Below, in pieces: positions 7,314 through 64,000 of a stretch of 64,000 bases of DNA; position 1 is the stretch's first letter; the number at the start of each line of letters is the position of its first letter. The stretch is from Chloroflexota bacterium (lineage in GTDB: Bacteria > Chloroflexota > UBA11872). The stretch spans positions 636,310 to 700,309 of the forward strand of contig CBDAOU010000001.1 in assembly GCA_965198185.1 (NCBI GenBank). The letters run 5' to 3'. The notes under the pieces are model-generated. The model was not told the DNA's origin. It worked only from the letters and a program-made list of their open reading frames with translations, and made no database searches. Both the position numbers and the translations under genes were made by a program.

Positions 7314-7340
7314 CTGACATCCCCTGCAGCGGCCCCGGTG

Positions 7341-20529: not shown

Positions 20530-21133
20530 GCCAAGCGACGAATCTCTGACAGAGATCGCCATCCACGTCGAGGTCTCGGGCTCGGATAGCCAGGCCCATT
20601 TGCCTAGGATCTTCCCGGGCAGCCAGCCAGGCATACAGCTGTGCCCGCACGGTCTTGCTCGCGGCGAACGGCGGGTTAGGTATCTCGTCGATATACCGCT
20701 GCGAAAGCGGCCACACCGGATCGTCCGCCGGGACCATCTGGATCACGAAGTTTTCAAGCTCACCGGCTGAATGGTTGTCAGGCATCACCCAGACTCCGAT
20801 GCGGGGCCTGTCGCTGGTGCTATTGATGATGGTTCCTGACGCTTCGGGTGAGCTTGGGATGCAAACGTCCTCGTCGGCAAGGCGATCTCTTACGGCGTCC
20901 CAGCGAGCCGGGACATTGTGGTTGGCGTCTACGACGATCCCGATCGACTGACGCCCTGGAGCAAGGATGTCCGCGCCAAGATCATCCAGCAGCGTATCAA
21001 TGCCACCCTTTGGCTCAACGTGAAAGGACGTTGACGGTTCGCAGCGCTCACATATCCGCGCCACGACATGCTTCTCATCCGGACCTTCGACAATGAGCAC
21101 ACGGCTCAGCGACGCTGACCCAGGAAGCGACAC
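20510..21133 (-). CDS. DUF4276-like (Toprim/OLD-nuclease-like) protein, partner of the upstream ABC-type ATPase
   Basis: 207 aa with an N-terminal 'VLIVEGPDEKHV' (EGxDE motif, as I recall for DUF4276). Starts 4 nt after the ATPase stop. Lower GC. Confidence 0.55.
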   Translation of the reverse strand: MSLPGSASLSRVLIVEGPDEKHVVARICERCEPSTSFHVEPKGGIDTLLDDLGADILAPGRQSIGIVVDANHNVPARWDAVRDRLADEDVCIPSSPEASGTIINSTSDRPRIGVWVMPDNHSAGELENFVIQMVPADDPVWPLSQRYIDEIPNPPFAASKTVRAQLYAWLAAREDPRQMGLAIRARDLDVDGDLCQRFVAWLTRLFG

Positions 21134-21136
21134 AAG

Positions 21137-48658: not shown

Positions 48659-49084
48659 CCCACCTAACTGTTCGCCACTGGCGTCGCTCTAGCCCCGATC
48701 CGGGGCATGATGCCAGCCCACCCAGCTCCCGTCGCAGTCCGCGCATCGCCGGACAGCCGGAACCGGACTTTTCAAGGGCGGGGCGTTGCTGAGGTCCCGC
48801 ACGTCGCTGGCAACGAATTGTCCCGAGGAGTGTCTGATCTTTCGGCCTGATCGACGTTGTCGTCAGGGCGTCGCGGACGAGGCTGCGCATCTGCAACGCG
48901 ATGCATGGTAGGCAGGCGCGACGGCGTACGCTGTCAACGCCCGGTGGGAGTGGTCCATCATGCCTGGCCGGATTCTTCGAGCCGCGAGTCGCCCCATGGC
49001 AGCCATCCCTGGATCGCGCCACCGACCCGGTGGTCGCGCGCACCTGACTCACCCGCGCTTGCGGCTGAACGCCCCGTCCCGGCC

Positions 49085-51067
49085 ATGAGCGCCGTCGTCA
49101 CCGACACCCGCCGTACGCCCGGGGTCAGGGTTCAGCCGGTGCCCATCGAGGCGGTGCGGGTTGGGTCCGGGTTCTGGCGCGGCTGGCTTGACCGGCTCTA
49201 CGACGTCACGCTGCCTTCGCAGCACGCGCAGTGCGAAGCCACCGGCCGCCTCGACAACATCCGGCGCGTCTCGGGCCGCGTGGATGCGCCGTTTCGGGGG
49301 CGCTACTACGACGAGTCCGACGTCTACAAGTGGCTCGAGGCCGCCAGCTGGGCGCTGGCGGGGCGCGAGGATCGGCGGCTGCGGGCGCTGGTGGACGCGC
49401 TGGTCGATGACATTGCCGCCGCGCAGCAGCCGGACGGCTATCTCCATACCTATTTCGCGCTGGAGCGGGCCGACGAGCGCTACACCGACCTCATCAACAA
49501 GCACGAGCTGTACTGCGCCGGGCACCTGATCCAGGCGGGCATCGCCCACCGCCGTGCGACGGGTACGGAGGCGCTGCTGGACGTGGCGGTGCGGCTGGCC
49601 GATCACATCTGCGTCGAGTTCGGCCCCGAGGCCCGCGAAACGGCGGACGGGCATCCCGAGATCGAGCTGGCGCTGGTCGAGCTGGCGCGCGAAACCGGCG
49701 AGCGCGTCTACGCCGAGCGCGCTCGGTTCTTCTTGGACCAGCGGGGACGGCAGCCGCCGCGGCTGGGCGGATACCGCTATCTCCAGGACCACGAGCCGGC
49801 GGCCGAGCAACAGGAGATTGCGGGGCATGCGGTGCGGGCGGTCTACCTGGCGTGCGGCCTGGCCGACGCCGGCCTGGAACTCGAGGACCGCGCGCTGTGG
49901 GCGGCGTCCGAGCGGCTCTGGCGCAGCGCCTACGAGTCCAAGGTCTTCGTCACCGGCGGCCTGGGGGCGCACTACGCCGGCGAGTCGTTCGGCTCCGCGT
50001 TCGACCTCCCGAATCGCAACTCCTACGCCGAGTCGTGCGCGGCCGTGGCGGGGGTGATGTGGAACTGGCGCCTCCTCGCCGGCACGGGCGAGGCGCGCTA
50101 CGCCGACTGGATGGAGACCACGCTCTACAACGGCATGCTGGCGGGGCTGTCGCTGGACGGCGAGCACTACTTCTATCCCAACCCGCTCAGCGCGGCGGTG
50201 GGGCACGCCCGGGTGGCGTGGTTCGACTGCGCCTGCTGTCCGCCCAACCTGGCGCGCCTGCTCGCCAGCCTGCCCGGCTACCTCTACGGCGTGTCCGAGC
50301 GGGCGCTGTGGGTGCATCACTTCGCGGCGGGTCGGGTGGATGCGGACGTGCCGGGCGCGGGTCGTCTGTCGCTGGAGGTGGACACGGACTACCCATGGTC
50401 GGGCAATGTCCAGTTCTCCGTGCGCCAGGCGCCGGGCGGTCCGGTGGAACTGCGGCTGCGCGTGCCAGGTTGGTGTGACGGCGCCGGCCTTGAGCTGGTC
50501 CCAGCCGACCCCGCCGAGTCCGCCGCCGACCTCAACCGTCATTCCGGCGAAGGCCGGAATCCACCGAATATGTCCCCCGCGCCGACATCCGATGTCCGCT
50601 CCCTGGCCGCCGGCGACTACGCCACGCTGCGCCGCGTGTGGGCGACCGGCGACCAGGTCACCCTGCGGCTGCCCATGCCGCCGCGCCGCTTGGTCAGCGA
50701 CCCGCGGGTGACGGCCAACGTCGGCCGCGTGGCCCTGGCCCGTGGACCGCTGATCTACTGCGTCGAATCCCACGACCGCCCGGGACTGGAGCAGGACGCC
50801 TTCGCGCTGCCCGACGACGCAGCGGTCACCCCAGGATCCGCCGACGACCGTCTGCCGGGAATGACGCTGCTGGACACGACGGTCGTCCCGCTGCCCGGAA
50901 CGCCCCGGCGCGGCGCGCTCTATCAATCGGCTACGGGCGACGCCCAAGCGGCCGATGCTCCCACGGACCCGGTGGCCATCCGCGCCATTCCCTACTTCGC
51001 CTGGGCCAATCGAGGGCCGGGCACGATGGACGTGTGGCTGCGCCGGCAGGAGGCGGTTTCCGCTTAG
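49085..51067 (+). CDS. glycoside hydrolase family 127 (beta-L-arabinofuranosidase-like, DUF1680)
   Basis: GH127 core 'HELYCAGHLIQAG', Cys-rich 'WFDCACCPPNLARL' zinc site. Start at the Met of 'MSAVVTDTRRTPG' (49085). Confidence 0.85.
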   Translation: MSAVVTDTRRTPGVRVQPVPIEAVRVGSGFWRGWLDRLYDVTLPSQHAQCEATGRLDNIRRVSGRVDAPFRGRYYDESDVYKWLEAASWALAGREDRRLRALVDALVDDIAAAQQPDGYLHTYFALERADERYTDLINKHELYCAGHLIQAGIAHRRATGTEALLDVAVRLADHICVEFGPEARETADGHPEIELALVELARETGERVYAERARFFLDQRGRQPPRLGGYRYLQDHEPAAEQQEIAGHAVRAVYLACGLADAGLELEDRALWAASERLWRSAYESKVFVTGGLGAHYAGESFGSAFDLPNRNSYAESCAAVAGVMWNWRLLAGTGEARYADWMETTLYNGMLAGLSLDGEHYFYPNPLSAAVGHARVAWFDCACCPPNLARLLASLPGYLYGVSERALWVHHFAAGRVDADVPGAGRLSLEVDTDYPWSGNVQFSVRQAPGGPVELRLRVPGWCDGAGLELVPADPAESAADLNRHSGEGRNPPNMSPAPTSDVRSLAAGDYATLRRVWATGDQVTLRLPMPPRRLVSDPRVTANVGRVALARGPLIYCVESHDRPGLEQDAFALPDDAAVTPGSADDRLPGMTLLDTTVVPLPGTPRRGALYQSATGDAQAADAPTDPVAIRAIPYFAWANRGPGTMDVWLRRQEAVSA

Positions 51068-53322
51068 GGACCGGCCGCGGCGTCTGGACGGCAGCACCGA
51101 GGGACTGGTATTTCACGTGATCCCTTGGGCCGGAGGTCTGCCGCCAGCAGCAGCGCCATGCCCATGGCCGCCAGCGCGCCAGTGAGGGTTTGATAGGCCG
51201 CGCCGGCGGAATCGCCGTGGAGGTCGAAGGGGGCGTACCAGGCGAACAGCTCGCGGCGGAAGCTCAGGTAATCCAAGTCGCCGCGGGGCAGGTCGAGGGG
51301 ATGGGCCCAGAGTTGGGGCGCGTTGACGTAGATATCAGCGGGCAGGAGACTGCCGCCCCGGTCGTGCGCGTAGGCCTCGGGTGTGCCGAGCACATAGAGG
51401 CTGCCGGCGGTCAGATAGACAACTAGGGCGAGCCCGGCCGCGGCGGCGATGGTGCGCGCGGCCGCGCCCCGTTGCGCCGCCAGAGCACCCAGCGCCGTCG
51501 CGCCAAGCGCGGCCAGCACCGCCATGATCGGAGCCGGATAGGCGATGTGGCGCACGAACTCCTGGGCGTCGTGGGGGCGAACGGTGTAGGAGTCGATGCC
51601 GAGGGTCACGACCACGTTGACGCCCGCCGCCAGCGGCAACACGGCAAAGGCCCAGTGGCGGCGGGTGCCCGCAACGGCGCCGATCGCGGCGAGAGCGAGG
51701 AGGACGGCGATGAGGAGGGGGAAGCGAACGTCTTCAAGGAGTACATCACGGGAGATCTCATGCCAGGTCGTGCCGCCCACGAGGCCGGCATGGTCGGCAA
51801 TCCTGTTGAGGGCGAACTCGCGCGCGGCAGTGGGCCACGGGCGGCCGAGTTGCACCTGACTAAATAGCGCCAGCGGAGTCAGCAGGGCGGCCGCCATCAG
51901 CGCGCCGGCAACGGTCCAGCGCGAGCGGATGCCGACGAGTGCGCCGAGAACGAGCAGGCCGCCATAGAGCAGGCCCTCGGGCCGGGTACCGGCGAGCACG
52001 GCTGCGAGCACACCGAGCACCGGCAGGGATGCCCGCGGGTGGGGGGTCCGCAGCACGTGTGCGAATACCCACACCGCGCCCGCCAGCCAGGCGATGAACA
52101 CCGGATCGGGCTCGGCGGAGCCCAGGCTTGCAATTTGGACCGGTGGCAGCAGCACCAACCCGACGGCGGCGGCGAAGGCCGCGGCACGCGCGGCGCCGGC
52201 GGCCAGCGCAGCGCGATAGATCAGCCACGGCAGCAACACGTTGGCCAGGAAGAGGGGGGCCAAGGCCGCAGGATAGGTGTAGCCCAGGACCGTGAAGGCC
52301 GCCAGCTGCAGCAGCGGCAGGCCGGGCAGGCTGAGCCAGTCTCCCCAGATGGGATAGCGTGCCTGGCCCAGGGCGTAGGCCGTGCTCCAGAAGTGGCCGA
52401 GGTCATCCATGGTCACGGCGATATAGGACGCGGCCTGCAGGCCGCCGATCAGCAGCAGCGACAGCGTGGCCGCGGGCGCTGCCAGGCGTCGCAGGGTCAG
52501 GCGCCAGCCCTCCCAAAGCCGGCTGGGTGCGGCGCGCTCGCCCCACCAGACGGTGGCAGCGGTCAGCGCCAGCCCAACGGCGAGCGTCACCGCCAGCACC
52601 TGTGCGCCGGCGGAGGTGGCCAGCTCGTGCCGGGGCGCCGCCGGGACGGCGGTGATGACCGCCATGACCCACGCGGCGGCGAAGGGCAGCGTCCGCCAGG
52701 CCACTCCTTGCGACGTGCGCGCCGCCGGCTGCGGGGGCAGCCGTGCCAATCCTCCGGTCACCGCCGCCCCGAGCACCCAGCCGATCAGCGCCCACGGTGG
52801 CTCGAAACTGGAAGAATCAACCACGGCCACTTGCAGCAACGCCGCAATCGCCACGCCGGCGGCCCCGCCGTAGGCCAGATCAACGCTCGCGCTGGAACCG
52901 CCGGCCCGCTGAGCGGTCAGCACAATGCTCAGCGGCAGCACGGCGACCAGCACCCAGTTCAGCGCGCTCAGCTTCATCATCAGATGGACTAGGTCCGGGC
53001 TGAAATGCATCGCGGCGGCGACGCCGATCAGAGGCAGGGCGAACAGAGGGGTGACGGCGGGCGACCGGCGCCAAGCGACGACGGCGGCCAGCGCCGCCAG
53101 CACCGCGCCGGTCGCCAACACGTCCCAGGACGCGCGGAGGCCGGCCCCGATCGGCCCGCCCACGAGGAGCGCGCCGAGCAGGCCGTGCCCGGCGGCACTG
53201 AGCACGACGAGGCTTGCGGCTACCGGCGGCCTCCAGGTACGCCGCGTGAGGTTCTGGGTGATTCCGAAGTGGGCGTCGCCGTCAGGAGCGCTTGGGATCG
53301 CTTCGCCTGGTGAAGCGGACAA
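51064..53322 (-). CDS. large polytopic membrane protein (752 aa), putative GT-C-type glycosyltransferase
   Basis: More than 14 predicted TM helices, Ala/Leu-rich. Sits next to two GT2 polyprenol-phosphate glycosyltransferases and GH127. Confidence 0.55.
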   Translation of the reverse strand: MSASPGEAIPSAPDGDAHFGITQNLTRRTWRPPVAASLVVLSAAGHGLLGALLVGGPIGAGLRASWDVLATGAVLAALAAVVAWRRSPAVTPLFALPLIGVAAAMHFSPDLVHLMMKLSALNWVLVAVLPLSIVLTAQRAGGSSASVDLAYGGAAGVAIAALLQVAVVDSSSFEPPWALIGWVLGAAVTGGLARLPPQPAARTSQGVAWRTLPFAAAWVMAVITAVPAAPRHELATSAGAQVLAVTLAVGLALTAATVWWGERAAPSRLWEGWRLTLRRLAAPAATLSLLLIGGLQAASYIAVTMDDLGHFWSTAYALGQARYPIWGDWLSLPGLPLLQLAAFTVLGYTYPAALAPLFLANVLLPWLIYRAALAAGAARAAAFAAAVGLVLLPPVQIASLGSAEPDPVFIAWLAGAVWVFAHVLRTPHPRASLPVLGVLAAVLAGTRPEGLLYGGLLVLGALVGIRSRWTVAGALMAAALLTPLALFSQVQLGRPWPTAAREFALNRIADHAGLVGGTTWHEISRDVLLEDVRFPLLIAVLLALAAIGAVAGTRRHWAFAVLPLAAGVNVVVTLGIDSYTVRPHDAQEFVRHIAYPAPIMAVLAALGATALGALAAQRGAAARTIAAAAGLALVVYLTAGSLYVLGTPEAYAHDRGGSLLPADIYVNAPQLWAHPLDLPRGDLDYLSFRRELFAWYAPFDLHGDSAGAAYQTLTGALAAMGMALLLAADLRPKGSREIPVPRCCRPDAAAGP

Positions 53323-53508
53323 GCTAGTCGCTGTCGCGCGCGACGCGGCCGCCGCGCAGGTTCACGATCTCCGCCATGATGGCCAGCGCGATCTCGGCCG
53401 GTGTGCGGCGGCCGGAATCCAGGCCGATCGGGGCGTAGACGCGGCGGAACTTGTCGGGCGACGACCCGCGTTCAGCGGTCGCATCGGCGGCGCGCAGCCT
53501 TGCGACAG

Positions 53509-54669
53509 TCAGTCGGGGGCGGCGCCGAGGAACGCGATGAAGGCCAGATGCACGCCACTGATGATGAGCGCCTGGGCCAGGGCGGCGAGTTGGGCGCCGG
53601 CCGTGGAGGCGGCGCCGCCAACCCACTGGACGAAGATGAACACGTCGATGCCGACCCCGCCGAGAACCGCGAGGGTGGCCAGCGCCAGGGCGGTTTCCAG
53701 GTGCACAAGCGGATAGATGCGCGCCAGCCAGCGCGAGGGCCGCGCCAAGCCGGTCTGGACCAGACGGCGGTGCGCCACCAGACCGAAGGCGAGGCCGCTG
53801 ACGCCCAACACCCAGAAGATCGGCCCGGCGAACACAGGTTGCCACCGCAGGCCGCCGATGTCCGCGCTCGAGGCGGTGAAGCCGAGCACGAAGGTCAGGC
53901 TGCCCAGCGTGAGGAGGATCGCGCTGGGCAGCACGTACAGCAACGCGGGCGTCAGCAGCAGGATCAGTCGCAGATGGCGCCAACCGTCGCGCAGAGTCCG
54001 CAGCTTGCTCTCCCCCTCGCGGGGACCATAGGACGTCGGGATTTCGGCGATGCGCAGACCTTGGATGGCAGCCTTGGCGATCATCTCGGAGGCCAGCTCC
54101 ATACCGCTGGACCGCAGACGCAGCCGGTCGATGGCTGGGCGGGTCAACGCGCGGAGGCCGCTTTGGCTGTCGCGAATGTGGACACCGTAGGTGCGCCGCA
54201 ACACCCAACTGATGAGCGGGGTGCCAATGCGACGATGCAGCCAGGGCATGGCGCCCGGCTGCACGCCGGCCAGGCGATTGCCTAGGGCCAGGTCGAAGCC
54301 GTCCTACAGCGGCGTCACGAGCGCCGCCAGGCTCGCAAGGTCGTAGGTGTCGTCCGCATCCGCCATCACAATGAACCGGCCGCGAGCCTCCGTAAAGCCG
54401 CGCCGCAACGCCGCGCCATAGCCGGGGCAGGCTTCGCGCACCACTCGTGCCCCCGCCGCTTCGGCGAGCGCCGCTGAGTCGTCCGTCGAGCCGTTGTCGA
54501 CGACCAGCACCTCCCCAGGCAACCCCGTGCGCGCGACGCCCAGATGCGCTGCCCGCACGGACGCGGCCACCGTCTGGGCTTCATTCAGGCAGGGAAGGAT
54601 GACCGAGATCGCTGGGGCAAGGGTGTCGACCGTGACCTTCTGGCGAGGCGACGAGGGCATTGGGGGCAC
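53509..54669 (-). pseudogene. GT2 polyprenol-phosphate glycosyltransferase (GtrB/Ppm1-like with a C-terminal TM domain), interrupted by an in-frame TAG
   Basis: N-terminal ORF 54304..54669 ('ISVILPCLNEAQT...VVDNGSTDDS...MADADDTYD') and C-terminal ORF 53509..54264 share one frame: '...LVTPL*DGFDLALGNRLAGVQPGAMPWLHRR...'. A single amber codon sits at 54304-54306. Confidence 0.7.
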
Positions 54670-54779
54670 GTCTGTGAGTTCCGCACCGTGCGGCTACCTG
54701 AGGTGCCCCGATGGTAGTGGATTGCTGAGCCCGCAGCGCAAGCGGCGTCTGGCTATGACAGCCGGCGGCGCGCGGTGGC

Positions 54780-55544
54780 ATGCTGCGGCGGATGTCGCTG
54801 TCCAGTCCCCCGCACGTCTGCTTCGTTGTTCCCACCTACAACGAGGCAGCCAACATCACACCGCTGCTGGAGCGGGTGACCGGGCTGTACCCCAGCGGCG
54901 ACACGGCGGTTCTGATTGTGGACGACCGCAGCCCCGACGGCACGGGGGACTTGGTGCGGGCCTTCGCTACCGGCGATCGGCGCGTGCATCTGCTTGAGGG
55001 TCCCCGGTGCGGCCTGGGCCGCGCCTACGTGCGCGGCATCCGGCACGCCCTTGATGAGCTGGGGGCCGAGGTGATCGTGCAGATGGACGCCGATTTCTCG
55101 CATGATCCCGCCGACGCGCGCCGGCTGCTGGATCGTCTCGGTGCCGGTGCCGACGTGGTGATCGGGAGCCGCTATGTCGCCGGCGGCGGCATCGACAACC
55201 GCTGGAGCCTGCGCCGCCGGCTGCTGTCGGGATGGGGCAACCAACTGACGCGCTGGGTCGCGGGCTTGCGACGCGTGCGGGACTGTACGGCGGGATTCAA
55301 GGCCATCAGCGCCAACGCGCTGCGCGCAGCCGACATCGACGGCATCACGGCGCGGGGGCAGGCCTTCCAGGTCGTGTTGCTGCACCGCCTGACCCGTGGC
55401 GGCGCGCGCGTCGTGGAGGAGCCAATCTTCTTCCGCGAGCGCGATCGCGGGCGGACCAAGCTGGGCTGGCGGGACATCGTGGAGTGTCTGCTCGTCATAT
55501 GGCGGCTGCGACTCACCGACCTTCTCCGGTCGCGCCAGACGTGA
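54780..55544 (+). CDS. GT2 polyprenol monophosphomannose synthase-like glycosyltransferase
   Basis: 'FVVPTYNEAANI', 'IVDDRSPDGT', 'MDADFSHDP', 'VIGSRY' are dolichol-P-mannose synthase-type motifs. Confidence 0.85.
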   Translation: MLRRMSLSSPPHVCFVVPTYNEAANITPLLERVTGLYPSGDTAVLIVDDRSPDGTGDLVRAFATGDRRVHLLEGPRCGLGRAYVRGIRHALDELGAEVIVQMDADFSHDPADARRLLDRLGAGADVVIGSRYVAGGGIDNRWSLRRRLLSGWGNQLTRWVAGLRRVRDCTAGFKAISANALRAADIDGITARGQAFQVVLLHRLTRGGARVVEEPIFFRERDRGRTKLGWRDIVECLLVIWRLRLTDLLRSRQT

Positions 55545-55625
55545 GCGACGCGCTCAGTAGCTAGCACCCCGCAGGGTGAGCGCGCATTGCCATGGAGGCC
55601 CGTTGGTTTACTGATCAGTTGTTGA

Positions 55626-55639
55626 CGTTACATTTGTAA
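55626..55639. promoter_or_regulatory. perfect palindrome GTTACAtttGTAAC overlapping a TTGACG -35-like hexamer, upstream of the phage-like module
   Basis: AT-rich 60-bp stretch 'tttactgatcagttgttgacgttacatttgtaacgatctaggattagg' in otherwise GC-rich DNA. Also contains a TGATCA palindrome. Confidence 0.45.
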
Positions 55640-55711
55640 CGATCTAGGATTAGGGCTGTAGCACGCAGGCGCCTGCCTCGCTCGGCGCGCCAATGACACC
55701 AGGAGGCCCTC

Positions 55712-57400
55712 TTGCCCGAGTCCCGTCCCGACGCGTTGCCCCCACCGTCCGAGTCCTATGTGCAAGAGCTGGAGCAGCATCTGCTCACCGAGTTCGGCGG
55801 CCGCAACGCGCGCATTGAGCGCTTGCGACGGCTGCGGTTCATGGAGGAGCCGGTCGACATTCCGGCGGCCTATCGGGCCACGACGCGCGAGGTGCGGACG
55901 CCGCTGGCCCGGGAGCAGCTCAAGCGGGTCGTGGGCAGCCTGACCGCCAACCACCCGACCATCAGCGTGCCGCCGGCCGATCAGACGTCGGAGAGCCGAG
56001 CCAACGCCTCGCGTCGCGAGCGTTGGACGGCCGCCGCCCTGCGGCGCATGAAGAACGACGCCGAGCGCGACATCTTCGGCATGTTCGTGGACGCGCTGGT
56101 GGCCGACGGCACAGGGGTGATGAAGCTGGTCTACGTCCCCGAGCGCTGGGCGGGGTATCCGAGCCGCGGCGACGCCGGGCCGGAGACCGACGCCGCGTTC
56201 AACGAGCGGTCGACTCGCTTCAAGCGCGCCGCGCCGTTCCCGCTGGCGTGGCGCGACGTGGACGTGCTGACCTTCTATCCCCTGATCGGCGACGACGGGA
56301 TCGAGGCCTGCCTGGAGATCGCCGAGCGGCCCAAGTGGCTCATGATGCGGCGCTACGGCCTCGTCGAGGACCGACGCACCGGTCGCCTGGCGCCCGCGGG
56401 CCGCGCGTCGGCGGCGGAGGGTCCGGCAGCCGCCGGCGGCACCGTGCGCGTGGTCGAATACTGGGACCGCGAGCATTTCGCCTACCTGGTGGACGGCCAT
56501 CTGGTGCGGCGCGGCCGCCACGCCTACGGCGCGGTGCCTTATGTGATGGCGCACGGCAACCAGTCGCCCAGCCGCGACCCGGCCAAGGCCGGCGAGTCGA
56601 TGCTGGCGTCGGTCGAATACCTGGTGCCGCTGCTCGACCGGCTGCTGACCATGAAGCAGAACGCGGTGCACCTCTACGCCTACCCGACGCCCAAGCTCAC
56701 CGGCTTTGCGGGCGGCGACGGCGCCCTCGGCGAGGACGGCCGCCCGCCGCCGATCGAGTTCCGGCCGGGCGAGATTCTGCCGTTGTTCCCCGGTGAGGAT
56801 CTGAGCTTGCTGCAGTGGTCGGGCACGCCACCCGATCTGGACGAGCTCATCGCCCTTACGCGCTCGATGATCGATCAGGCCGGCGTACCCACGGTGCTCT
56901 TCGGCATCGCGCCCGGCGGCAACACGAGCGGGTACTACCTGAACCAGCTGATCAACGCGGCGCGCTTGTCGTTCAACCAGATCACGCGGCACGCCGAGCA
57001 GGCGCTGGAGCGCATCGTGCAGCTGGCCTGGCGTCTGGTCGAACACCGGGTGCGCGAAACGGTGTATGTCTACGGCGACGACGACGCCGCGTGGCTGGGC
57101 CTGTCGCCGCGCGACATCAGCGGCTACTACGCCGTGCGCGCCAAGCTGGAGGCCCTGGCCCCGGCGGATGAGATCGCCCAAGGCACCTATGCCGCGAACC
57201 TGGTGGCGGCCAAGCTGGCGTCCCGGCGCTGGGCCATGCAGGAGAAGCTGGGCATCGCCAACGCGGCGGAGATGCAGGCGGAGATCATGCGCGAGGAGAT
57301 GCTTGACGATCCGGAGGTCCGGCGCGCCCTATGGCGCCGCGAGGGCGCCGTATCCGCGGCGGCTGACGCCGACCGCGCGGCCCCGGCGGACGGATCGTGA
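55712..57400 (+). CDS. phage-related protein, possibly portal (562 aa)
   Basis: Large acidic protein immediately upstream of a small ORF and a large terminase. No signature I can name with certainty. Confidence 0.4.
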   Translation: MPESRPDALPPPSESYVQELEQHLLTEFGGRNARIERLRRLRFMEEPVDIPAAYRATTREVRTPLAREQLKRVVGSLTANHPTISVPPADQTSESRANASRRERWTAAALRRMKNDAERDIFGMFVDALVADGTGVMKLVYVPERWAGYPSRGDAGPETDAAFNERSTRFKRAAPFPLAWRDVDVLTFYPLIGDDGIEACLEIAERPKWLMMRRYGLVEDRRTGRLAPAGRASAAEGPAAAGGTVRVVEYWDREHFAYLVDGHLVRRGRHAYGAVPYVMAHGNQSPSRDPAKAGESMLASVEYLVPLLDRLLTMKQNAVHLYAYPTPKLTGFAGGDGALGEDGRPPPIEFRPGEILPLFPGEDLSLLQWSGTPPDLDELIALTRSMIDQAGVPTVLFGIAPGGNTSGYYLNQLINAARLSFNQITRHAEQALERIVQLAWRLVEHRVRETVYVYGDDDAAWLGLSPRDISGYYAVRAKLEALAPADEIAQGTYAANLVAAKLASRRWAMQEKLGIANAAEMQAEIMREEMLDDPEVRRALWRREGAVSAAADADRAAPADGS

Positions 57401-57633
57401 CGGCGGCAAAGCGACGGCCGTCGCCCCACGAGCTTCCCGCGCGATTTCGCACGCTGGCCGAGGAGCACACGGACGAGATCTGTGCGGCTGTCATCGACCG
57501 CGCGCGCAAGGGCGAGCGCTGGGCGACCGAGCTGGTGATGCAATACGCCTTCGACCGCTCAGCCGCAGCCTCCGAGGACGCGCTCGTGACTCTGCTGGAG
57601 GACATCCGCGCCCGCCTTGCGCACAGCGCGTGA
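57397..57633 (+). CDS. small hypothetical protein (78 aa), possibly a small-terminase/DNA-binding component
   Basis: Overlaps the upstream gene stop (ATGA) and the terL start. Basic N-terminus. Confidence 0.35.
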   Translation: MTAAKRRPSPHELPARFRTLAEEHTDEICAAVIDRARKGERWATELVMQYAFDRSAAASEDALVTLLEDIRARLAHSA

Positions 57634-58909
57634 GGCGCTGTGGCGGCGCGTGGGCTACGCGCCGAGCCCCGAGCAGCGGCGGGCGCATGACTCGCCCGCG
57701 CGCATTCGCCTGATCGCCGGCGGGGAACGTGCCGGCAAGAGCCGCAGCGCCGCCATGGAGCTGTTCGGCCGCTGCCTTGAAGGCCGGCTCTACTGGCTGG
57801 TCGGCCCGGACTATGAGCTCTGCCGGCCCGAGTTCCGTTATTTGGCGGAGGCGTTTGGGGCCATCGGCGCCGTCGAGAGCCTGAGCTTCCCGTCGTCGGA
57901 GCAGTGTCGCCTGACGTTGCGCACCGGGGCGCGGATCGTGACCAAGTCGGCCCGCGATCCGGCGCGGCTGGCCGGCGAGGCGCCCGACGGAATTCTGGGC
58001 TGCGAGGCAGCCCAGTTGCCCTATGAGGTCTACCTGCGCCTGAGAGGCCGCGTGGCGGAGCGCCGCGGCTGGCTCTGGCTGAGCGGCACGTTCGAGGGCT
58101 CGCGCGGCTGGTACGCGGACCACTTCAGCGCCTGGCAGGTGGTGAACGCCGACGGCGCGGCGGCGTTCTCGATTCCGACCTGGTCCAACCGCACACTGTT
58201 TCCGGGCGGGCGCGCCGACGCCGAGATCGAGGCGCTCGAAGCGACCTATCCAGCGTCGGTGTTTCGGGAACGATTCGGCGGCGTGCCCTGCCCGCCCGCG
58301 ACCCTGGTGTTTCCTGAATTCGAGCCGGCGCGCCACGTGGCCGCCGTCGATCCGGCTGCCGTCGAGACCGTGGAGCTCGCGATCGACCCGGGATATGCCG
58401 GCGCCTATGCCGTGCTCGCGGTGACCGAGGCCGCCGGCGAAGTGCGGGTGATCGACGAGGTCTACCACCGCCGCATGGTGGCCGCGGAGATCATCGCGGA
58501 ATGCCGGCGACGCTGGTGGTGGCCGCGGGTGAGCGGCGGGGTGATCGACGTCGCCGGTCGCCAGCACCACGCCAGCGCCAGCCAGGTCGAAATCTGGCAG
58601 GCCCTAGCTGGGCTGCGCCTGCGGTCCCGCCCGGTGCGGGTCCAGGACGGCATCGATCGCCTGCGCACCTTCCTCCGCGACCCGGCCAGCGGGGAGCCGC
58701 GACTCACCCTGGCGCCGGCCTGCCGCGCGCTCATGCAGGAATTTGGAAGCTATCGCTACCACGAGATGCGGGACGACCGCCCAATCTCGGAGCTGCCCAT
58801 CGACCGCGATAACCATGCCATCAAGGCGCTGGCCTACTGGCTCTATGACCGCTTTGGGCCCGTTGCACGGCCGGCGCGGGCGTACCGGTCGTTCGCTCTG
58901 GTGGGCTAA
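57617..58909 (+). CDS. terL: phage terminase large subunit
   Basis: Walker A 'GGERAGKS', Walker B-like 'LWLSGT', RNase-H-like nuclease motifs 'IDPGYAGAYAV' and 'DRDNHAIKALAYWL'. Confidence 0.75.
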   Translation: MRTAREALWRRVGYAPSPEQRRAHDSPARIRLIAGGERAGKSRSAAMELFGRCLEGRLYWLVGPDYELCRPEFRYLAEAFGAIGAVESLSFPSSEQCRLTLRTGARIVTKSARDPARLAGEAPDGILGCEAAQLPYEVYLRLRGRVAERRGWLWLSGTFEGSRGWYADHFSAWQVVNADGAAAFSIPTWSNRTLFPGGRADAEIEALEATYPASVFRERFGGVPCPPATLVFPEFEPARHVAAVDPAAVETVELAIDPGYAGAYAVLAVTEAAGEVRVIDEVYHRRMVAAEIIAECRRRWWWPRVSGGVIDVAGRQHHASASQVEIWQALAGLRLRSRPVRVQDGIDRLRTFLRDPASGEPRLTLAPACRALMQEFGSYRYHEMRDDRPISELPIDRDNHAIKALAYWLYDRFGPVARPARAYRSFALVG

Positions 58910-58991
58910 CGGTCGCTATCGACGCGACGACCGCCGCGTCGATAGCCCTTGCTACCATTCAACGCCGGGGTGCGCCGCAGCGAGGGTCGGG

Positions 58992-59348
58992 ATGGCGAAG
59001 AACCCGCGTCAGCCGAACGAGCTCTCGCTGAAGCTCGAATGGTCGGGATTCGAGGACCAGCCGGTGCACTTCGTGAACCGGTTTGCCGTCCAGCACGACG
59101 CGCAGGCGAACGAGTTCTATCTCAACGTCGGCGCCGTGTCGCCGCCACTGATCATGGGGTCCGACGCGGACCGTATCGCCACAGCCGCCAAGCTGCAGGA
59201 GCGCGGCACGATTCCGGTGCATCCGGTGGCCCGCCTGGCACTGACCCCGGAGCGCGTCCTTGAGTTGATCAAGGCGTTGCAGACGAATTACCGGAACTAT
59301 CAAGAGGCCTTGGCGCGCCGCCAAGCAGACGCCGACGCCGGCGACTGA
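58992..59348 (+). CDS. hypothetical protein (118 aa)
   Basis: Starts at 'MAKNPRQPNELSLKLEW' within the longer ORF 58743..59348. Unknown function, follows terL. Confidence 0.4.
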   Translation: MAKNPRQPNELSLKLEWSGFEDQPVHFVNRFAVQHDAQANEFYLNVGAVSPPLIMGSDADRIATAAKLQERGTIPVHPVARLALTPERVLELIKALQTNYRNYQEALARRQADADAGD

Positions 59349-59516
59349 CCCTGATCGGACAGCCGGACCGCGGAGTGGACTGCTTATGGGACGCTGTCGC
59401 GACGTTCGTTTCACGATGCGAGCGATCGGGATCGAGGGTCGGCGCCGAGCCGCTGGCGCGCGGCGAGCAAGCCCGGAGATACTCGCAGGCACTGCTTGGT
59501 TCAAACGCGGTGATCG

Positions 59517-61133
59517 ATGTTGGGGCCTCAGGCAAGAGCCGTTACGGGTGTCGTATTCGCCAGGCAGCGGATGGCGAGCTTGGCGTCGCGCCGGTGGTTT
59601 CTGCCGATCGGCTCGGTGGTGAAGGACGGCGTCCTGGAAAGCAACGCCTGGAGCCTCGATGTGGCTCGCGCCGCGGTGCTGACGCTGCTGGCGGGCCTGA
59701 TCTATCTGCTTTCGTCCGGAGCCCACGCGTACAGCGTCGACGAGATCACCAACTACGCATCGGCCCGAGCGCTGGTGGAAACGGGCAGCCCGGACCTGTC
59801 AGGCGAGCAACCGTTTCCCCGCGAACAGTTGCTGACGCTGCGGCACCCGTCCATGGACAGGGTGACCGGACGCTATGGCCTGCTCTCGTGGGTGGGGATG
59901 GCACCGGCCTACCTCGTGGCTCGCTGGACCGATTCAATGCCGCCGCCGCCGTCGCCGACGTTTCCCCAACCGAGCGCGGTGCGGCCGGTGGCCGCGCTCC
60001 TCTACGCGCCGGCGATCGCTGCGCTCCTGGTGGGCGCAACCTATCTGCTTGGGCGCAACCTTGGCCTGCGACCCCGCAACGCTGCCGCGGCGGCGCTGGT
60101 GCTGGCGTTTGCCAGTCCTCTCTGGGTGTACGCGCAGGGCCTGGCCAACATCCCGCTCGCCGCGCTGTTCAGTGTGCTGGCGTTCGTCGCGGTCACCGGA
60201 TCGCGCTCGGGCTCGGGCGCATGGGCGGTGGCCGGCGGGCTCGCCGGTCTTGCCGCGCTCACGCGGACCGAATTCGTGGTCCTTGCGCCTGCGGTCGGCG
60301 CGTTGAGCGTGTTCCGCGGTGAGCGACTTTCGCGGGCCGGGCTCACCCGCGGGCTGGCGTTTGCGGTGGCATGGGCCGTCGTGGTCGTCCCGGGCATCGG
60401 GCTGTGGAACCTGTACCGAACGGGGGACTTCTTCGACGTCGGCTACCGGTCGGCCTCAATCCTCTGGCAAACGGACCGGGCCCATATCGGAATCTTCGGG
60501 GTGCTGGCCAGTCCGAGCTTTGGGCTGATGGTTTTCATGCCCGTCGCCGCAATCGGCCTGTGGGGGATGCTCGGCGCGACGTCCCGCCGGCCGATCTGGC
60601 TGACCATGCTGGCGCTGATTGTTCTCGCGGTTATCGGCTACGGGTCGTTTGACGACTGGTCCGGTGGGGTCTCCTGGGGACCTCGATACCTGACGGCCGT
60701 CACGCCGTTCTTGGCGCTAGGCATCGGCCTGGCTATGCAGGCGCCGTCAACGACCCTGGGTATGCGCCTTGTCACGCTGGGGCTGGCGGCGTGGTCGACC
60801 GGAGTTTCGGTGCTGGGCGTGCTCTTCGACTACCAATCGGGCTGGCGAAATCTCTGGGAGCACACGTCGCGTCTTGAACAGATCGAGTGGAATCCCCATT
60901 TCTCGTTGATCGGCGCCCACCTGCGGCTGGCCCGCCAGTGGGTCGACGGACTGATCGGCCCCGATCTGTTCGTGGTGCACCGGCTCGGCGCCTGGACGAT
61001 CGCCGTGCTAGCAGTGGGGCTGGTGGTGGTTCTGGGCCTAGCCGTGGCCATTGAGACCCGCAGCGTTGTGCTCGGCGGGCGGCACCGTAAGGACGCGCTA
61101 GCGGGACCGACGACGGATGTTCACGCTGGCTGA
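59517..61133 (+). CDS. polytopic membrane protein, putative GT39/GT83 (PMT/ArnT-like) glycosyltransferase
   Basis: N-terminal 'YSVDEITNYASARALVETGS' resembles the PMT/ArnT loop-1 motif. More than 10 TM helices. Start possibly at the Met at 59571. Confidence 0.55.
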   Translation: MLGPQARAVTGVVFARQRMASLASRRWFLPIGSVVKDGVLESNAWSLDVARAAVLTLLAGLIYLLSSGAHAYSVDEITNYASARALVETGSPDLSGEQPFPREQLLTLRHPSMDRVTGRYGLLSWVGMAPAYLVARWTDSMPPPPSPTFPQPSAVRPVAALLYAPAIAALLVGATYLLGRNLGLRPRNAAAAALVLAFASPLWVYAQGLANIPLAALFSVLAFVAVTGSRSGSGAWAVAGGLAGLAALTRTEFVVLAPAVGALSVFRGERLSRAGLTRGLAFAVAWAVVVVPGIGLWNLYRTGDFFDVGYRSASILWQTDRAHIGIFGVLASPSFGLMVFMPVAAIGLWGMLGATSRRPIWLTMLALIVLAVIGYGSFDDWSGGVSWGPRYLTAVTPFLALGIGLAMQAPSTTLGMRLVTLGLAAWSTGVSVLGVLFDYQSGWRNLWEHTSRLEQIEWNPHFSLIGAHLRLARQWVDGLIGPDLFVVHRLGAWTIAVLAVGLVVVLGLAVAIETRSVVLGGRHRKDALAGPTTDVHAG

Positions 61134-62530
61134 TGCGTTGGGGACCGAGCAGAGATGGGCGGCCGCGGGCGGACGCTTGCCACGAGGAGGACTGGAATGA
61201 GGGTGATCATGGTCAGTGCGATGACTAGGTCCGCCGCCAGCAACCACCAACGCGGATCGGTGGTGAGAAGCCGCCATATCGCGGCCAGCTTGCTCAGGGT
61301 TGGCTCGGGCGCGCTGTAGGCCACGAATTCCAGGTTCTGGTCCGGCCACGCCAACGCGCCGTTGATCCAGAGCCGGCCATCCGCATAGCGATCACCTTTC
61401 GTCGCGCCAACGCCAAGCTCGGCGCCGGTCTGGACATCGGCCGTTACCTGTAGGGCCAGCAGCTGGCCCTCGGCGGCGCTGACTGGCGGCAGAAGCTCAA
61501 TGTCTTTCCAGCGCGGGCAGTCACCAGCCGGGACCTCGACGGACCCTTCAGCATGAGTGCGGTCTGGCGCTTCGAGGGGGGTGACGCGAACCGCGACCGT
61601 CGCGGGACCGCCCCGCTCGCAATTTGACAGAAGGAGCCTGATGCTCTGCACGGGCGTGGCGGGCATGCGGAGCTCCTGAACCACAGCTTCGTGCCGCTGG
61701 AGGCTCAACCCAAAGGCGCCCGAGCGCATGTTTGGGGCCAGCGCCTCCGCCAACGGCGCACGGAAGAGGAAACCCACCGCAAGGCCGCCAAGCACGGCCA
61801 GCGCCGCGATCGACGCGACGAGCGACCGGTGCCAGCGGCCGCCGAAGAGGGGATAGGGCGGCAGACGTCCCTCTCGCAACACGATGACCGCGCTCAGTCC
61901 AATCAGCAGCGTTCCGCTGTACTCCAGGGTCTCTTCGACCACGAAAGCCAACGCCAACGCTCGCCCGCCGAACAGCCACTGATCAAGCGCATCCTGCACG
62001 AGCGCCAACACCCAGCAGGCGATCCCGAGCGTCAGCGGCGCGCGGGTCGCCGGCCCGCCCAGCCCGTTGCGGACGAAGATCCACATCGCCAGCACAAACG
62101 CGACGACCAGCGGACTCACCAGGACCTGCCACGACAGGCCCAGGCGTTCGGCGTGCCCGACGACCGAGATAGGACCAGCCCTCTTGAAGTCAAAGAGCTC
62201 TCCATAGGTCAACGCCGCCGCCGTCAGCGCCAGCGCGGCCCAGCCCCCAACGGCAATCCAGCCGGCCGAGCGGCGGCGGCTGATCACGGCCGCGGCGAGC
62301 GCAAGCACCGTCACGCATGCCAAAGTGGCGGCGGCCACCGAGTTCGCAATCGTGCCTTCGCTGTTGGCGTCGAGCCGGCCCAGGGTGGCGTCCCAGGGCG
62401 GGAGCAGCGCCGGGAATGCCAGGCTGAAAAGATGGGTCCCGACGTAGCCGCCCCACCAGAAGGCCACCACGCCCAGCAGCAGCAGCCGTGCAGTGCAACC
62501 CACCAGCCGCCAGGCAGAGCCTCGGGTCAT
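61121..62530 (-). CDS. membrane protein (about 9 TM) with a C-terminal extracytoplasmic domain, paralog 1
   Basis: 469 aa. N-terminal TM bundle then a soluble domain 'VRVTPLEAPDR...GDCPRWKDIELLP...GATKGDRYADGRLW'. Confidence 0.6.
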   Translation of the reverse strand: MTRGSAWRLVGCTARLLLLGVVAFWWGGYVGTHLFSLAFPALLPPWDATLGRLDANSEGTIANSVAAATLACVTVLALAAAVISRRRSAGWIAVGGWAALALTAAALTYGELFDFKRAGPISVVGHAERLGLSWQVLVSPLVVAFVLAMWIFVRNGLGGPATRAPLTLGIACWVLALVQDALDQWLFGGRALALAFVVEETLEYSGTLLIGLSAVIVLREGRLPPYPLFGGRWHRSLVASIAALAVLGGLAVGFLFRAPLAEALAPNMRSGAFGLSLQRHEAVVQELRMPATPVQSIRLLLSNCERGGPATVAVRVTPLEAPDRTHAEGSVEVPAGDCPRWKDIELLPPVSAAEGQLLALQVTADVQTGAELGVGATKGDRYADGRLWINGALAWPDQNLEFVAYSAPEPTLSKLAAIWRLLTTDPRWWLLAADLVIALTMITLIPVLLVASVRPRPPISARSPTHQPA

Positions 62531-62743
62531 CGGGCGGTTGGTCGGCTCATGTCAGGCGGCACTGGCGCGTCTTGGGCGCTCGGGCGGATGGCACGCACTG
62601 CTGAGCCTACAGCGGGCGGCGCACCGAAGCCGGCGAGACGACGCCACCCGCCGCTCCATCTCGGCGGAGCCAAGCGCTGAGATGGAAGCGAGAACTGCCC
62701 ATGAGCCCTGTGGACGTGCCCCATCGGATCCGGCCACGGCTAT

Positions 62744-64000
62744 TCACGCTGGCTGATGCGTTGAGGAACGAGCAGCGATGGGCCGCAACGGGCGGAGGCT
62801 CACCACGAGGAGGACTGGAATAAAGATGATCATGGTCAGCGCGACGGCGGCGTCCGCCGCCAGCAGCAGCCAGCGCGGATCGGTGGTGAGAAGCCGCCAT
62901 ATCGCGACCAGCTTGCTCAGGGTCGGCTCGGGCGCGCTGTAGGCGACAAACTCCAGGTTCTGATCCGGCCAGGCCAACGCGCCGTTGACCCAGAGCCGGC
63001 CATCCGCATAGCGATCGCCTTTCGTCGCGCCAACGCGAAGCTCGGCGCCGGGCTCAACGTCAGCCGCTACCTGCAGGGCCAGCAGCCGGCCCTCGGCGGC
63101 GGTGAGTGGCGGCAGGAGCTCAATGTCTTTCCAGCGCGGGCAGTCACCTACGGGGACCTGGACCGACCCCTCGGCAAGGACACGGTCGGGCGCCTCGAGG
63201 GGGGTGACGCGAACTGCGATCGTTCCCGAACGACCGGTTGGCTGACAATTCGACAGGAGCAGCCCAACGCTCCGCACCGGTGTGGCGGGCATGCGGAATT
63301 CCTGGACCACGGCTTCCTGCCGGCTGAGGCTTACGCTGAAGGCGCCCGCGCGCGTGTAGGGCGCCAGCGCCTCCACCAACGGCGCGCGGAAGAGGAAACC
63401 CACCGCAAGGCCGCCAAGCACGGCCAGCGCCGCGATCGACCCAACGAGCGACCGGCGCCAGCGGCCGCCGAATAGGGGATACGGCGGCGGATGGCCCTCT
63501 CGCAACACGATGGCCGCGCTCAGCCCAATCAGCAGGGTTCCGCTGAACTCCGCGGTTTCTTCGAGCACATACCCCAGCGCCACCGCTCCACCGGTGGGCA
63601 TCCACCGCCCGATCGCCTCCTGCGCGAGCGCAAACACCCAGCAAGCGACTCCGAGCGTCAGCGGCGCGCGGGCAGGCGGCACGTCTAGACCCTTGCGGAT
63701 GAAGATCCACATCGCCAGCACGAATACGACGACCAGCGGACTCACCAGAACGGGCCATGGAAGCCCCACGCGTCCCGCCTGCTCGAAGAGAGAGATCGGA
63801 CCCCGCTCTTTGAACTCGGCAAGCTCCTCGAAGGTCAAGGCCGCCGTCGTCAGGGCCACCGCAGCCCAACCGCCAACGGCAATCCAACCGGCCGAGCGGC
63901 GGCGGTTGACGACGGCCGCGGCGACCGCGAGCAGCGTCACGCACGCAAAGGTCGCGGCGGACACCGTGTTCGCAATCGTGCCTTCGTTGTCCGCATCCAA
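62744..64000 (-). CDS. membrane protein, paralog 2 (N-terminus beyond the window end)
   Basis: ~80% identical to paralog 1 over 418 aa. Shares the upstream leader. Runs off the window. Confidence 0.6.
   Translation of the reverse strand: MDADNEGTIANTVSAATFACVTLLAVAAAVVNRRRSAGWIAVGGWAAVALTTAALTFEELAEFKERGPISLFEQAGRVGLPWPVLVSPLVVVFVLAMWIFIRKGLDVPPARAPLTLGVACWVFALAQEAIGRWMPTGGAVALGYVLEETAEFSGTLLIGLSAAIVLREGHPPPYPLFGGRWRRSLVGSIAALAVLGGLAVGFLFRAPLVEALAPYTRAGAFSVSLSRQEAVVQEFRMPATPVRSVGLLLSNCQPTGRSGTIAVRVTPLEAPDRVLAEGSVQVPVGDCPRWKDIELLPPLTAAEGRLLALQVAADVEPGAELRVGATKGDRYADGRLWVNGALAWPDQNLEFVAYSAPEPTLSKLVAIWRLLTTDPRWLLLAADAAVALTMIIFIPVLLVVSLRPLRPIAARSSTHQPA

Follow-up and report, generated by a model that had tools for sequence, protein, structure and literature searches.

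Why are genes for phage DNA packaging, a large terminase and a portal-like protein, held between cellular genes in a bacterial chromosome? The question is raised by a 64,000-nucleotide stretch (the window) of contig CBDAOU010000001.1 from a Chloroflexota bacterium (assembly GCA_965198185.1). We consider it probable that positions 55712-58909 of the window are the packaging operon of an anciently endogenised, podovirus-derived and vertically inherited set of particle genes, a candidate gene transfer agent (GTA) or viriform. The further proposition, that this is the first GTA in Chloroflexota, hitherto undescribed, derived from a podovirus, organised as an operator-linked dispersed regulon and mediating DNA exchange among sponge symbionts, is one that we put forward tentatively. 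An earlier note, made from the letters of the window, had described the locus as a domesticated or remnant packaging cassette, satellite- or GTA-like rather than an intact prophage. The domesticated, GTA-like part of that description holds up (purifying selection, synteny, presence in 35 species); the remnant part does not, given a ratio of nonsynonymous to synonymous substitution rates (dN/dS) of 0.04-0.10 and unbroken reading frames. Nor is the cassette satellite-like or free-standing, since relatives carry capsid, nozzle and fibre genes of the same element.

Coordinates below are positions in the window, and L-numbers (L001, L003 and so on) denote homologous loci or genomes of relatives. 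Sequence context past position 64000 is drawn from the loci of these relatives and not from the window contig.

Packaging genes of the window and particle genes of relatives

The four open reading frames (ORFs) listed by the earlier note, of 562, 78, 430 and 118 amino acids, all exist (Table 1). Within the run of portal, s78 and terL the overlaps are 4 nt and 17 nt, which suggests translational coupling of the three genes, s78 being coupled to both of its neighbours. Judged from its sequence, the 430-residue protein is a true large terminase (TerL), as had been claimed without reservation. It matches the PHROG_2 large terminase family over residues 15-416 (E 6.5e-23) and, in its ATPase domain, the TerL of Thermus phage P74-26 in the PDB (E 2e-7). 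Actinophage terminases are 25-27% identical to it across 93-96% of its length, and among phage records 125 align at 25-27% identity over at least 80% of the query; Pfam and NCBIfam give no match at E <=0.01. An N-terminal ATPase domain (Walker A GGERAGKS) is followed by a C-terminal RNase H-like nuclease (IDPGYAGAY, VIDEVY, DRDNHA). The motifs GGERAGKS, IDPGYAGAY and DRDNHAIKALAYW of the window protein are kept in 33 distinct homologues, across which GGERAGKS, LSGTFE, (I/V)DPGYA, DEVY and D(R/A)DNH are conserved, and internal stops are found in none of the 37 terL loci.

For the 562-residue protein, direct sequence searches were uninformative: tblastn against phage genomes and sequence and profile searches of the PDB gave nothing usable, the match to PHROG_156 is weak (E 0.0037), and there is no Pfam match. 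Its identity was therefore settled by a fold search. An AlphaFold (AF2) model built from 20 homologues is of moderate confidence (predicted local distance difference test, pLDDT, 58; predicted template modelling score, pTM, 0.57), and all 50 of its 50 best Foldseek matches in the PDB are phage portals (E 2.6e-11 to 3.4e-6), headed by those of the podoviruses N4, DEV, Pan3 and SU10 (E 2.6e-11 to 3.4e-10). On this predicted fold the protein is a phage portal, which bears out the portal-like label first given to it. Three of the 20 homologues match Pfam SPP1_portal (best E 4.7e-6), and the matches to P22_portal and Phage_portal_2 are weaker. The portal ORF is unbroken in all relatives except L035, where a short deletion and a frameshift fall in a variable low-complexity segment (10690-10714 of that locus); terL and s78 are unbroken there.

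The small gene between portal and terL, s78, adjoins terL in every clade (35-93% identity, with an invariant GERWA.EL motif). A homologue search with its product returned close relatives only, and scans of Pfam, PHROGs and NCBIfam gave no direct family match. Along its whole length the s78 profile can be aligned with the C-terminal half of a DUF5681-like ORF that stands directly upstream of terL in viral relatives, at weak scores (hmmsearch E 0.019; hhalign E 1.6e-4, probability 51%). Other relatives carry a canonical Terminase_2 small terminase (TerS) instead of that ORF. The s78 product may thus be a truncated protein of the small-terminase position that has lost a basic N-terminal arm. The 118-residue ORF after terL (s118) appears to be coding (GC content at third codon positions, GC3, 0.85) and has no family match in Pfam, PHROGs, NCBIfam or PADLOC. 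Present in five close genomes only, and displaced in L035, it is best taken from its distribution as an accessory gene outside the conserved module, of which the earlier note had made it a part.

The earlier note also observed that no capsid, tail or integrase gene follows the terminase. Within the 64 kb this is correct, and tblastn of the window with the relatives' element genes gave no match. The window ends, however, before the module in question: position 64000 falls inside the second copy of a tandem membrane-protein gene (m469), and the closest relatives continue there to a sulfatase gene and then to the capsid gene, so that capsid, nozzle and fibre genes lie a few kilobases downstream. 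At least 14 relatives have the capsid gene (284 aa), at a distance of 2-9 kb past terL (Pfam Phage_capsid_4, E 1.9e-9; PHROG major head protein, E 2.6e-12; NCBIfam N4-gp56 capsid, E 2.8e-9). Capsids are 86% identical between clades whose sulfatases are 63% and whose Sua5 proteins are 53% identical, and the capsid dN/dS is 0.09-0.17. We infer that the window genome carries the same module just beyond 64000.

Two sets of relatives span the whole element, L012+L047 (OZ244789.1) and L001+L049. In OZ244789.1, the closest complete genome, GH127 and GT2a genes flank the packaging module (portal, s78, terL) upstream. Inserted cellular genes follow (a PIN/Phd toxin-antitoxin pair, then glycosyltransferase-like (GT-like), m469-like, sulfatase and small ribbon-helix-helix (RHH)-like genes), and then a head, tail and lysis module that encodes the capsid, proteins of 75, 391, 776, 224, 110, 334 and 82 aa, an M23+SLT protein and a protein of 86 aa. 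The downstream flank consists of an NYN-domain gene, a 505-aa gene and Sua5. The NYN-domain gene was considered as part of the element and rejected; it is adjacent in many genomes, its position varies and it is absent from the window.

The AF2 model of the 776-residue protein (pLDDT 75) has among its best PDB matches podophage tail nozzles or hubs (cyanophage A4, Pa223, LME-1, VP1, Pan3, P22 gp10, T7 gp12), and on this modelled structure the protein is a podophage tail nozzle or hub. The 224-residue protein is a tail fibre (PHROG_892, E 1.4e-9) with a conserved N-terminus and a variable C-terminus. In two relatives an M23/SLT lysin gene follows the nozzle and fibre genes, and its product matches, among others, the PHROG 'internal virion protein with endolysin domain'. 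Tail genes change rapidly (dN/dS 0.25-0.6), and no tail tube or tape-measure gene is present in the element in the relatives' loci. Gene tables of the element with about 10 kb on each side contain no integrase, excisionase, primase or replication gene. As far as genes tell, about 12 kb of phage-derived sequence would specify a short-tailed particle and a cell-wall hydrolase.

Descent, constraint and the direction of insertion

Portal homologues number 51 in the protein collection, many of them on megabase-scale contigs, and the element is present in 35 species-level Chloroflexota metagenome-assembled genomes (MAGs; GTDB), one locus being listed for each. Several of these MAGs presumably come from sponges, to go by their isolate labels; the record titles read 'Chloroflexota bacterium'. 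By portal identity to the window the homologues form groups at 93-96% (nine other species), about 72% (two), 64-70% (about twenty), 52% (L034 and L051) and 35% (Anaerolineae contigs). IMG/VR contains only relatives of about 35% identity and none of the 52-96% group. The nearest outgroup, from an exhaustive profile search, is a phage-like contig with the order TerS-x-TerL-x-x-portal, and other outgroup contigs likewise place terL before the portal (terS-terL-x-portal). The earlier remark that a portal ahead of terL is unusual was thus apt, and the outgroups indicate that the order is derived, having arisen by rearrangement in the sponge-associated clade.

The flanks of the element are fixed, with GH127 upstream and Sua5 downstream. 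GH127 precedes the portal in most clades at 47-86% identity, always below the identity of the portal, and both genes rank the genomes in the same way (93-96/72/64-70% for the portal; 79-86/51-52/47-49% for GH127). The dN/dS values in Table 1 were computed against the window for the close clade, in which synonymous divergence (dS) is 0.31-0.44 and unsaturated. At similar dS, portal and terL lie below the flanking cellular genes (0.14-0.37; values for single genes in Table 1). The operon genes have the GC3 of their cellular neighbours (0.84-0.91; 0.91 for the portal and 0.87 for terL, both host-like), in a high-GC host chromosome (about 0.69 around the locus). The similar dS of element and flanks, their common order of divergence, the host-like GC3 and the fixed flanks point to a single integration long ago, after which the element was inherited vertically and strongly constrained.

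Which genes were inserted into which? The locus had been described as a phage module inserted inside a glycosyltransferase cluster; the GT-like gene downstream, however, is itself a lineage-specific insertion. The GT-like and m469 genes sit between terL and capsid in the close relatives L003, L005, L011 and L012/L047 and are not at that position in more distant clades. There the space is taken up by MR_MLE alone (L013) or by MR_MLE, bPH, sulfatase and BNR genes (L002 and L049), and in the window clade by toxin-antitoxin, GT-like, m469 and sulfatase genes, with Fic in L003. Because a sulfatase gene stands between the modules in nearly all clades, the split of packaging from capsid genes is old. 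The other inter-module genes differ by lineage while the phage-derived framework is conserved; cellular genes entered the element and not the reverse. By this comparison the phage-derived genes are the older framework, into which GT-like, m469, toxin-antitoxin, Fic and restriction-modification (RM) genes were inserted lineage by lineage. Between the GT2 and GT39-like genes first named as borders of the cassette, the packaging genes are kept widely and the GT2a and GT-like genes in the close clade only.

The packaging module itself has been opened in six genomes, in which insertions of 5-8 kb separate terL from portal and s78; the insert in L001, the one split that was annotated, includes a type ISP restriction enzyme. 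More generally, the junction after terL or s78 is an insertion hotspot (window 58910-59516; L001 12208-19900; L003 13254-15667; L047 887-1510), which has taken up genes of defence and addiction types in different genomes, such as those for a type ISP RM enzyme together with a pentapeptide-repeat protein, for Fic, for a PIN/PhdYeFM pair and for HicB.

Regulatory sequences, proposed function and alternatives

Upstream of the portal gene lies an AT-rich stretch (55600-55649, GC 0.40 against about 0.69 nearby), in which the earlier note had correctly placed a promoter and a palindrome; both are kept in close relatives. TTGACG-17-TAGGAT is the sole promoter-like site in 55300-59700, a region for which shuffled sequence averages 0.3, and its architecture is retained in all nine of the other close-clade genomes (TTG of the -35 and TAnnnT of the -10 element). 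The palindrome in its spacer, GTTACATTTGTAAC, has a TTAC-N4-GTAA core that occurs once in 64 kb against 0.02 expected, with matches in 2 of 100 shuffles. Over ten close-clade genomes including the window the TTAC and GTAA half-sites are invariant and the central 4 nt variable, which is the pattern expected for a site bound by a dimeric protein, and GTTACATTTGTAAC is probably the binding site of a dimeric regulator. Of the two palindromes pointed out earlier, this one is kept in relatives; the other, CTGATCAG (55611-55618), is present near the promoter but is not kept, and was rejected as a meaningful site.

The same operator recurs at the second module. In seven relatives, a promoter TTGCAT-17-TAGAGT with the same palindrome in its spacer stands 389-393 nt upstream of the capsid start, and in the capsid promoter of L047 both outer bases of the palindrome have changed symmetrically, to ATTAC-N4-GTAAT. 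The 64-70% clade has another palindrome, GTACTC-N5-GAGTAT, which overlaps a consensus TATAAT -10 element at the portal promoter. It is found again between an element-linked XRE-type helix-turn-helix (HTH) gene and a divergent pair of 243-aa and scaffold-like genes, and again upstream of terL in six of the six genomes with a displaced terL, where a GCCAGCGATGTCCC leader follows. Operators common to dispersed pieces imply that the pieces form a regulon, and their position in the spacer or at the -10 element suggests repression. Each displaced terL (L001, L017, L019, L021, L025, L026) has its own copy of promoter, operator and GCCAGCGATGTCCC, and its frame is extended at the N-terminus; the extension in L001 contains an HTH-like segment, RRALCRRFGIAPATAYKWL.

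The XRE-HTH block (L001 1878-4012; L037 13512-15639; L013 5790-7896; others) accompanies the element in the 64-72% clades. In it, a Cro/CI-type XRE HTH gene is divergent from the 243-aa gene and a 240-aa scaffold-like gene, the latter having homologues in the ORFs that separate portal from capsid in L034 and L051. The whole block stands either immediately behind terL or, in inverted orientation, 7-8 kb ahead of the portal. In the window clade a small RHH-like gene, divergent from the capsid promoter, is conserved between that promoter and the sulfatase gene (minus strand; L047 6617-6871, L009 7874-8511). As it stands beside a PIN toxin gene in L009, it is probably a VapBC-type antitoxin gene rather than a regulator of the element.

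Several leader and trailer sequences were also noted. For the hairpin in the portal leader, RNAalifold on ten close-clade leaders gives weak support (11 pairs, 3 changed on both sides), and a more distant clade has a different conserved portal leader, GCCAGCGATGTCCC followed by a hairpin. The capsid leader of about 390 nt (L047 7100-7491; L049 about 7230-7630) has no ORF; a GC-rich block of about 100 nt is kept across clades, and RNAalifold predicts 24 nested pairs, 7 of them compensatory, so that the leader is a candidate cis-regulatory RNA. No Rfam family was found in portal or capsid leaders. Just after terL, a hairpin without a U-tract (-24.1 kcal/mol, z = -4.0; none of 200 shuffles as stable) is a candidate terminator or 3' end of the operon. 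It was rejected as a conserved terminator; its sequence is not kept in relatives, because variable inserted DNA begins at that junction.

We propose the following sequence of events. A regulator would bind TTAC-N4-GTAA in the promoter spacer, and on its relief the portal-s78-terL operon would fire. A second operon under the same operator, which in relatives encodes capsid, 75-aa, 391-aa, nozzle and fibre proteins and in some the M23/SLT lysin, would fire alongside. The portal would then seed a capsid made of the HK97/N4-type coat protein. TerL, possibly helped by s78, would dock on the portal, its ATPase pumping DNA in and its RNase H-like nuclease cutting it. Nozzle and fibres would finish a short-tailed particle, for which the M23/SLT enzyme could serve in lysis or in cell-wall penetration. 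Particle production, the nature of the cargo DNA and its transfer are in this scheme inferred from the genes. Lacking integrase and replication genes and broken up by cellular genes, the element could not propagate as a virus, and its maintenance therefore implies a benefit to the host. That benefit would most likely be the packaging and delivery of host DNA.

This proposal can be set beside the general properties of GTAs (PMC10883770 and PMC6363796) and beside definitions of GTAs and viriforms (PMC10883770 and PMC9953437). L012+L047 and L001+L049 have genes for structure, packaging and lysis and none for replication or integration; of these genes the window shows those for packaging. Vertical inheritance under purifying selection is indicated by synteny, by matching dS and divergence order, and by dN/dS of 0.04-0.17 across terL, portal and capsid. 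A literature search, of incomplete coverage, returned no GTA-like element described in Chloroflexota or in sponge Chloroflexota.

A candidate GTA ranks first in our assessment. Ranked second, and in our view unlikely, is a defective prophage, domesticated and retained for a function that is not gene transfer. It might make a PBSX-like killer particle or, in a variant that shares this estimate, serve programmed lysis and DNA release, a subpopulation supplying extracellular DNA or delivering material within the sponge matrix. Both readings share their structural evidence. The lysin-type M23/SLT enzyme on the one hand, and the variable fibre C-terminus and fast tail genes on the other, fit particles that must adsorb to target cells, for killing as much as for transfer. 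A particle that serves killing alone could do without strong conservation of terminase and portal, but no gene here is more constrained than terL. DNA is packaged by PBSX as well, however, and this alternative therefore differs from a GTA mainly in the selected benefit; sequence cannot tell the two apart. There is a slim chance that portal and terminase were exapted alone for a role outside a virion, as an anti-phage packaging decoy or a DNA-translocation device, with no connection to the capsid and tail genes close by. The packaging operon is indeed a separate transcription unit, and the post-terL junction gathers defence-type genes in relatives (type ISP RM, toxin-antitoxin, Fic). However, the capsid operon carries the operator of the portal operon, is under no less constraint and accompanies the packaging genes wherever the sequence extends far enough, and PADLOC finds no match for portal, s78 or terL.

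That the element is a temperate phage still on the move, or a capsid-forming satellite, integrating site-specifically beside GH127, is largely refuted and very improbable. Its phage-like ancestry, with close outgroups on phage-like contigs, and the Cro/CI-type XRE regulator of more distant clades would suit such an element. Against it, genes for integrase, excisionase, primase or replication are missing in and around the element at every locus; there are no attachment-site (att) repeats, the only long repeats around the packaging module being the m469 paralogues; element and flanks agree in dS and in order of divergence; cellular genes are nested lineage-specifically between the modules; IMG/VR holds no member of 52-96% identity; and GC3 is fully host-like. 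The earlier judgement that this is not an intact prophage is accordingly upheld, for the window and for about 10 kb of flank in relatives, an XRE-type HTH gene occurring only in distant clades. A decaying, functionless remnant of a cryptic prophage, retained by chance, could account for the fragmentation by insertions, for the lack of a capsid or tail gene in the window, for the portal frameshift in L035 and for disruption by an insertion sequence (IS) in L051. The selection analysis refutes it and leaves it hardly any probability: dN/dS values of 0.04-0.10 are below those of neighbouring cellular genes, terL is unbroken in 37 of 37 loci and the portal in all but one though the flanks have diverged to about 48% identity, and promoters and operators are conserved.

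Several observations weigh against a functional GTA. All genomes are MAGs, and a GTA is defined by what its particles do (random host DNA, a capacity smaller than the locus, transfer to recipients), hence our word candidate. The window itself shows no capsid and tail module, whose presence in this genome is argued from the 93-96% identical relatives. In the window clade no regulator, no scaffold gene and no maturation protease were found, and profile hidden Markov models of the XRE-HTH/243-aa/scaffold-like block have no match in the window or in ten close-clade loci. The link of s78 to TerS depends on weak profile scores, and the M23/SLT gene is missing from the L049 locus, in a distant genome. 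The frameshifted portal of L035, a close and complete MAG, reflects either real decay or an assembly error. In the 52% relative L051 (175-kb contig, 3x coverage; 3640-21633), the genes for portal, scaffold-like protein and capsid adjoin one another; a truncated terL lies inverted 5.6 kb upstream, and an IS3-family transposase interrupts the tail region. L051 may represent the element either in an intermediate state or in decay, and its IS insertion and truncated terL imply that the element can decay.

Comparison with known systems places the element near several and within none. RcGTA of Alphaproteobacteria likewise has head, tail and packaging genes that come from a phage and none for replication or integration; it too is chromosomal, vertically inherited, under purifying selection and spread over more than one co-regulated locus. 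Its small terminase lacks the usual DNA-binding specificity, a trait paralleled by the proposed N-terminal truncation of s78. However, there is no homology to the RcGTA head-tail cluster beyond generic TerL, portal and HK97 folds, the sole RcGTA-related signal being a sub-threshold Phage_BR0599 match over 50 residues of the 391-aa protein. RcGTA is siphovirus-like, with tape measure and tail tube, whereas the element here is podovirus-like, with a nozzle and neither of those genes; the order portal-s78-terL and the host phylum also set it apart. PBSX of Bacillus is a defective prophage with a contiguous, myovirus-like cluster. It shares with our element a conserved, non-propagating state at a fixed site, terminase, portal, capsid, tail and lysis genes, and a promoter under repressor control, putative in the case of our element; the element described here is instead short-tailed and split by cellular genes.

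Dd1 of Desulfovibrio, VSH-1, BaGTA and VTA are independent domestications of different tailed phages, each in one host lineage, and Dd1 is short-tailed by report. The element resembles them in being an independent domestication of a tailed phage and is related to none; to our knowledge none of them has been reported from Chloroflexota. The closest likeness in parts is to N4-, T7- and P22-like podoviruses, in the portal fold (N4, DEV, Pan3, SU10), in the capsid (N4-gp56 family) and in the nozzle (A4, Pa223, Pan3, P22 gp10, T7 gp12). Unlike these, the element has no polymerase or early genes, its gene order is rearranged, only about 12 kb of phage-derived genes are left, and identity in the fold alignments is 7-15%. 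Capsid-forming phage-inducible chromosomal islands (cf-PICI satellites) are horizontally mobile, encode an integrase and replication functions, and have no tail genes. Like them, the element is a small gene set that includes terminase, portal and capsid but falls short of a complete phage genome; it differs in having nozzle and fibre genes, in lacking integrase and replication genes, and in being syntenic, vertically inherited and co-divergent with its flanks.

We know of only a handful of independent GTA lineages, none from Chloroflexota. If DNA-filled particles are made, this would be another independent domestication, from a short-tailed phage, and would offer a concrete route for horizontal gene transfer among uncultured sponge symbionts. 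The element may also serve as a natural example of a viral gene set that is split by cellular insertions yet stays functional, each dispersed piece keeping or regaining a copy of the same promoter-operator. For annotation, it teaches that a seeming orphan terminase plus portal can be the visible part of a larger conserved system.

Neighbourhood and features of the window

Table 1. Features of the locus in window coordinates, with dN/dS for the genes analysed.
Feature	Position	Strand	Description	dN/dS
Upstream flank	48857-55544	mixed	GH127, 752-aa membrane protein, split GT2, GT2a	
GH127	48857-51067	+	GH127-family glycoside hydrolase, upstream flank	0.17-0.27
752-aa membrane protein gene	between GH127 and split GT2	-	upstream flank	
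Split GT2 gene	53509-54669	-	two ORFs, 251 aa + 121 aa	
GT2a	54780-55544	+	GT2 gene, close clade only	0.17-0.28
Sigma-70-type promoter	55622-55650	+	-35 TTGACG, 17-nt spacer, -10 TAGGAT	
Operator-like palindrome	55627-55640		GTTACATTTGTAAC, core TTAC-N4-GTAA, within promoter spacer	
5' leader, ~55 nt	55651-55711	+	GC-rich hairpin GGCGC...GCGCC + AGGAGG	
Portal gene	55712-57400	+	562 aa, TTG start, ribosome-binding site AGGAGG at 55701-55706	0.06-0.10
s78	57397-57633	+	78 aa, GTG start, overlaps portal stop as GTGA	0.15-0.29
terL	57617-58909	+	430 aa, TTG start, 17-nt overlap with s78	0.04-0.09
Hairpin after terL	58914-58945	+	perfect 12-bp, GC-rich, 5 nt past terL stop	
s118	58992-59348	+	118 aa	
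Lineage-specific cellular insert	59517-64000	mixed	GT-like gene and two m469 paralogues	
GT-like gene	59517-61133	+	putative membrane glycosyltransferase, weak NCBIfam match	0.14-0.20
m469 paralogues	61121-62530; 62744-64000+	-	membrane protein without family match, tandem pair, ~470 aa	0.31-0.37

Upstream of the element, the genes scanned are housekeeping genes (ClpC-like, IlvD, RecJ, RelA/SpoT). Nearer to it, the 752-aa and split-GT2 genes are missing at the corresponding position in the 96%-identical relative L003; the split GT2 has an in-frame stop near 54265-54303 and is either a pseudogene or the product of a sequence error. Downstream, the designation of the GT-like gene as GT39-like is weakly supported: it matches the NCBIfam LA_3751/LA_3752 putative glycosyltransferase family (E 1.2e-18) at 67 bits, below the cutoff of 200, and has no Pfam match. 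The tandem m469 paralogues are 85-87% identical at the nucleotide level, and their dN/dS exceeds that of the other genes around them. In L047, a third and distant paralogue (about 29% identity) stands beside the element.

Two further features of the window lie apart from the element. Two tRNA genes (Rfam RF00005; 10206-10293 and 10325-10417) are distant from it and are not its integration site. A low-GC island on the minus strand (20510-22231, GC 0.53-0.56 against about 0.68) encodes an AAA_15/AAA_21 ATPase and a DUF3226 protein, with matches to PDC-M38A/B, a candidate defence pair (E 2.6e-72 and 8.1e-40), and, for the ATPase, to AbiLi as well.

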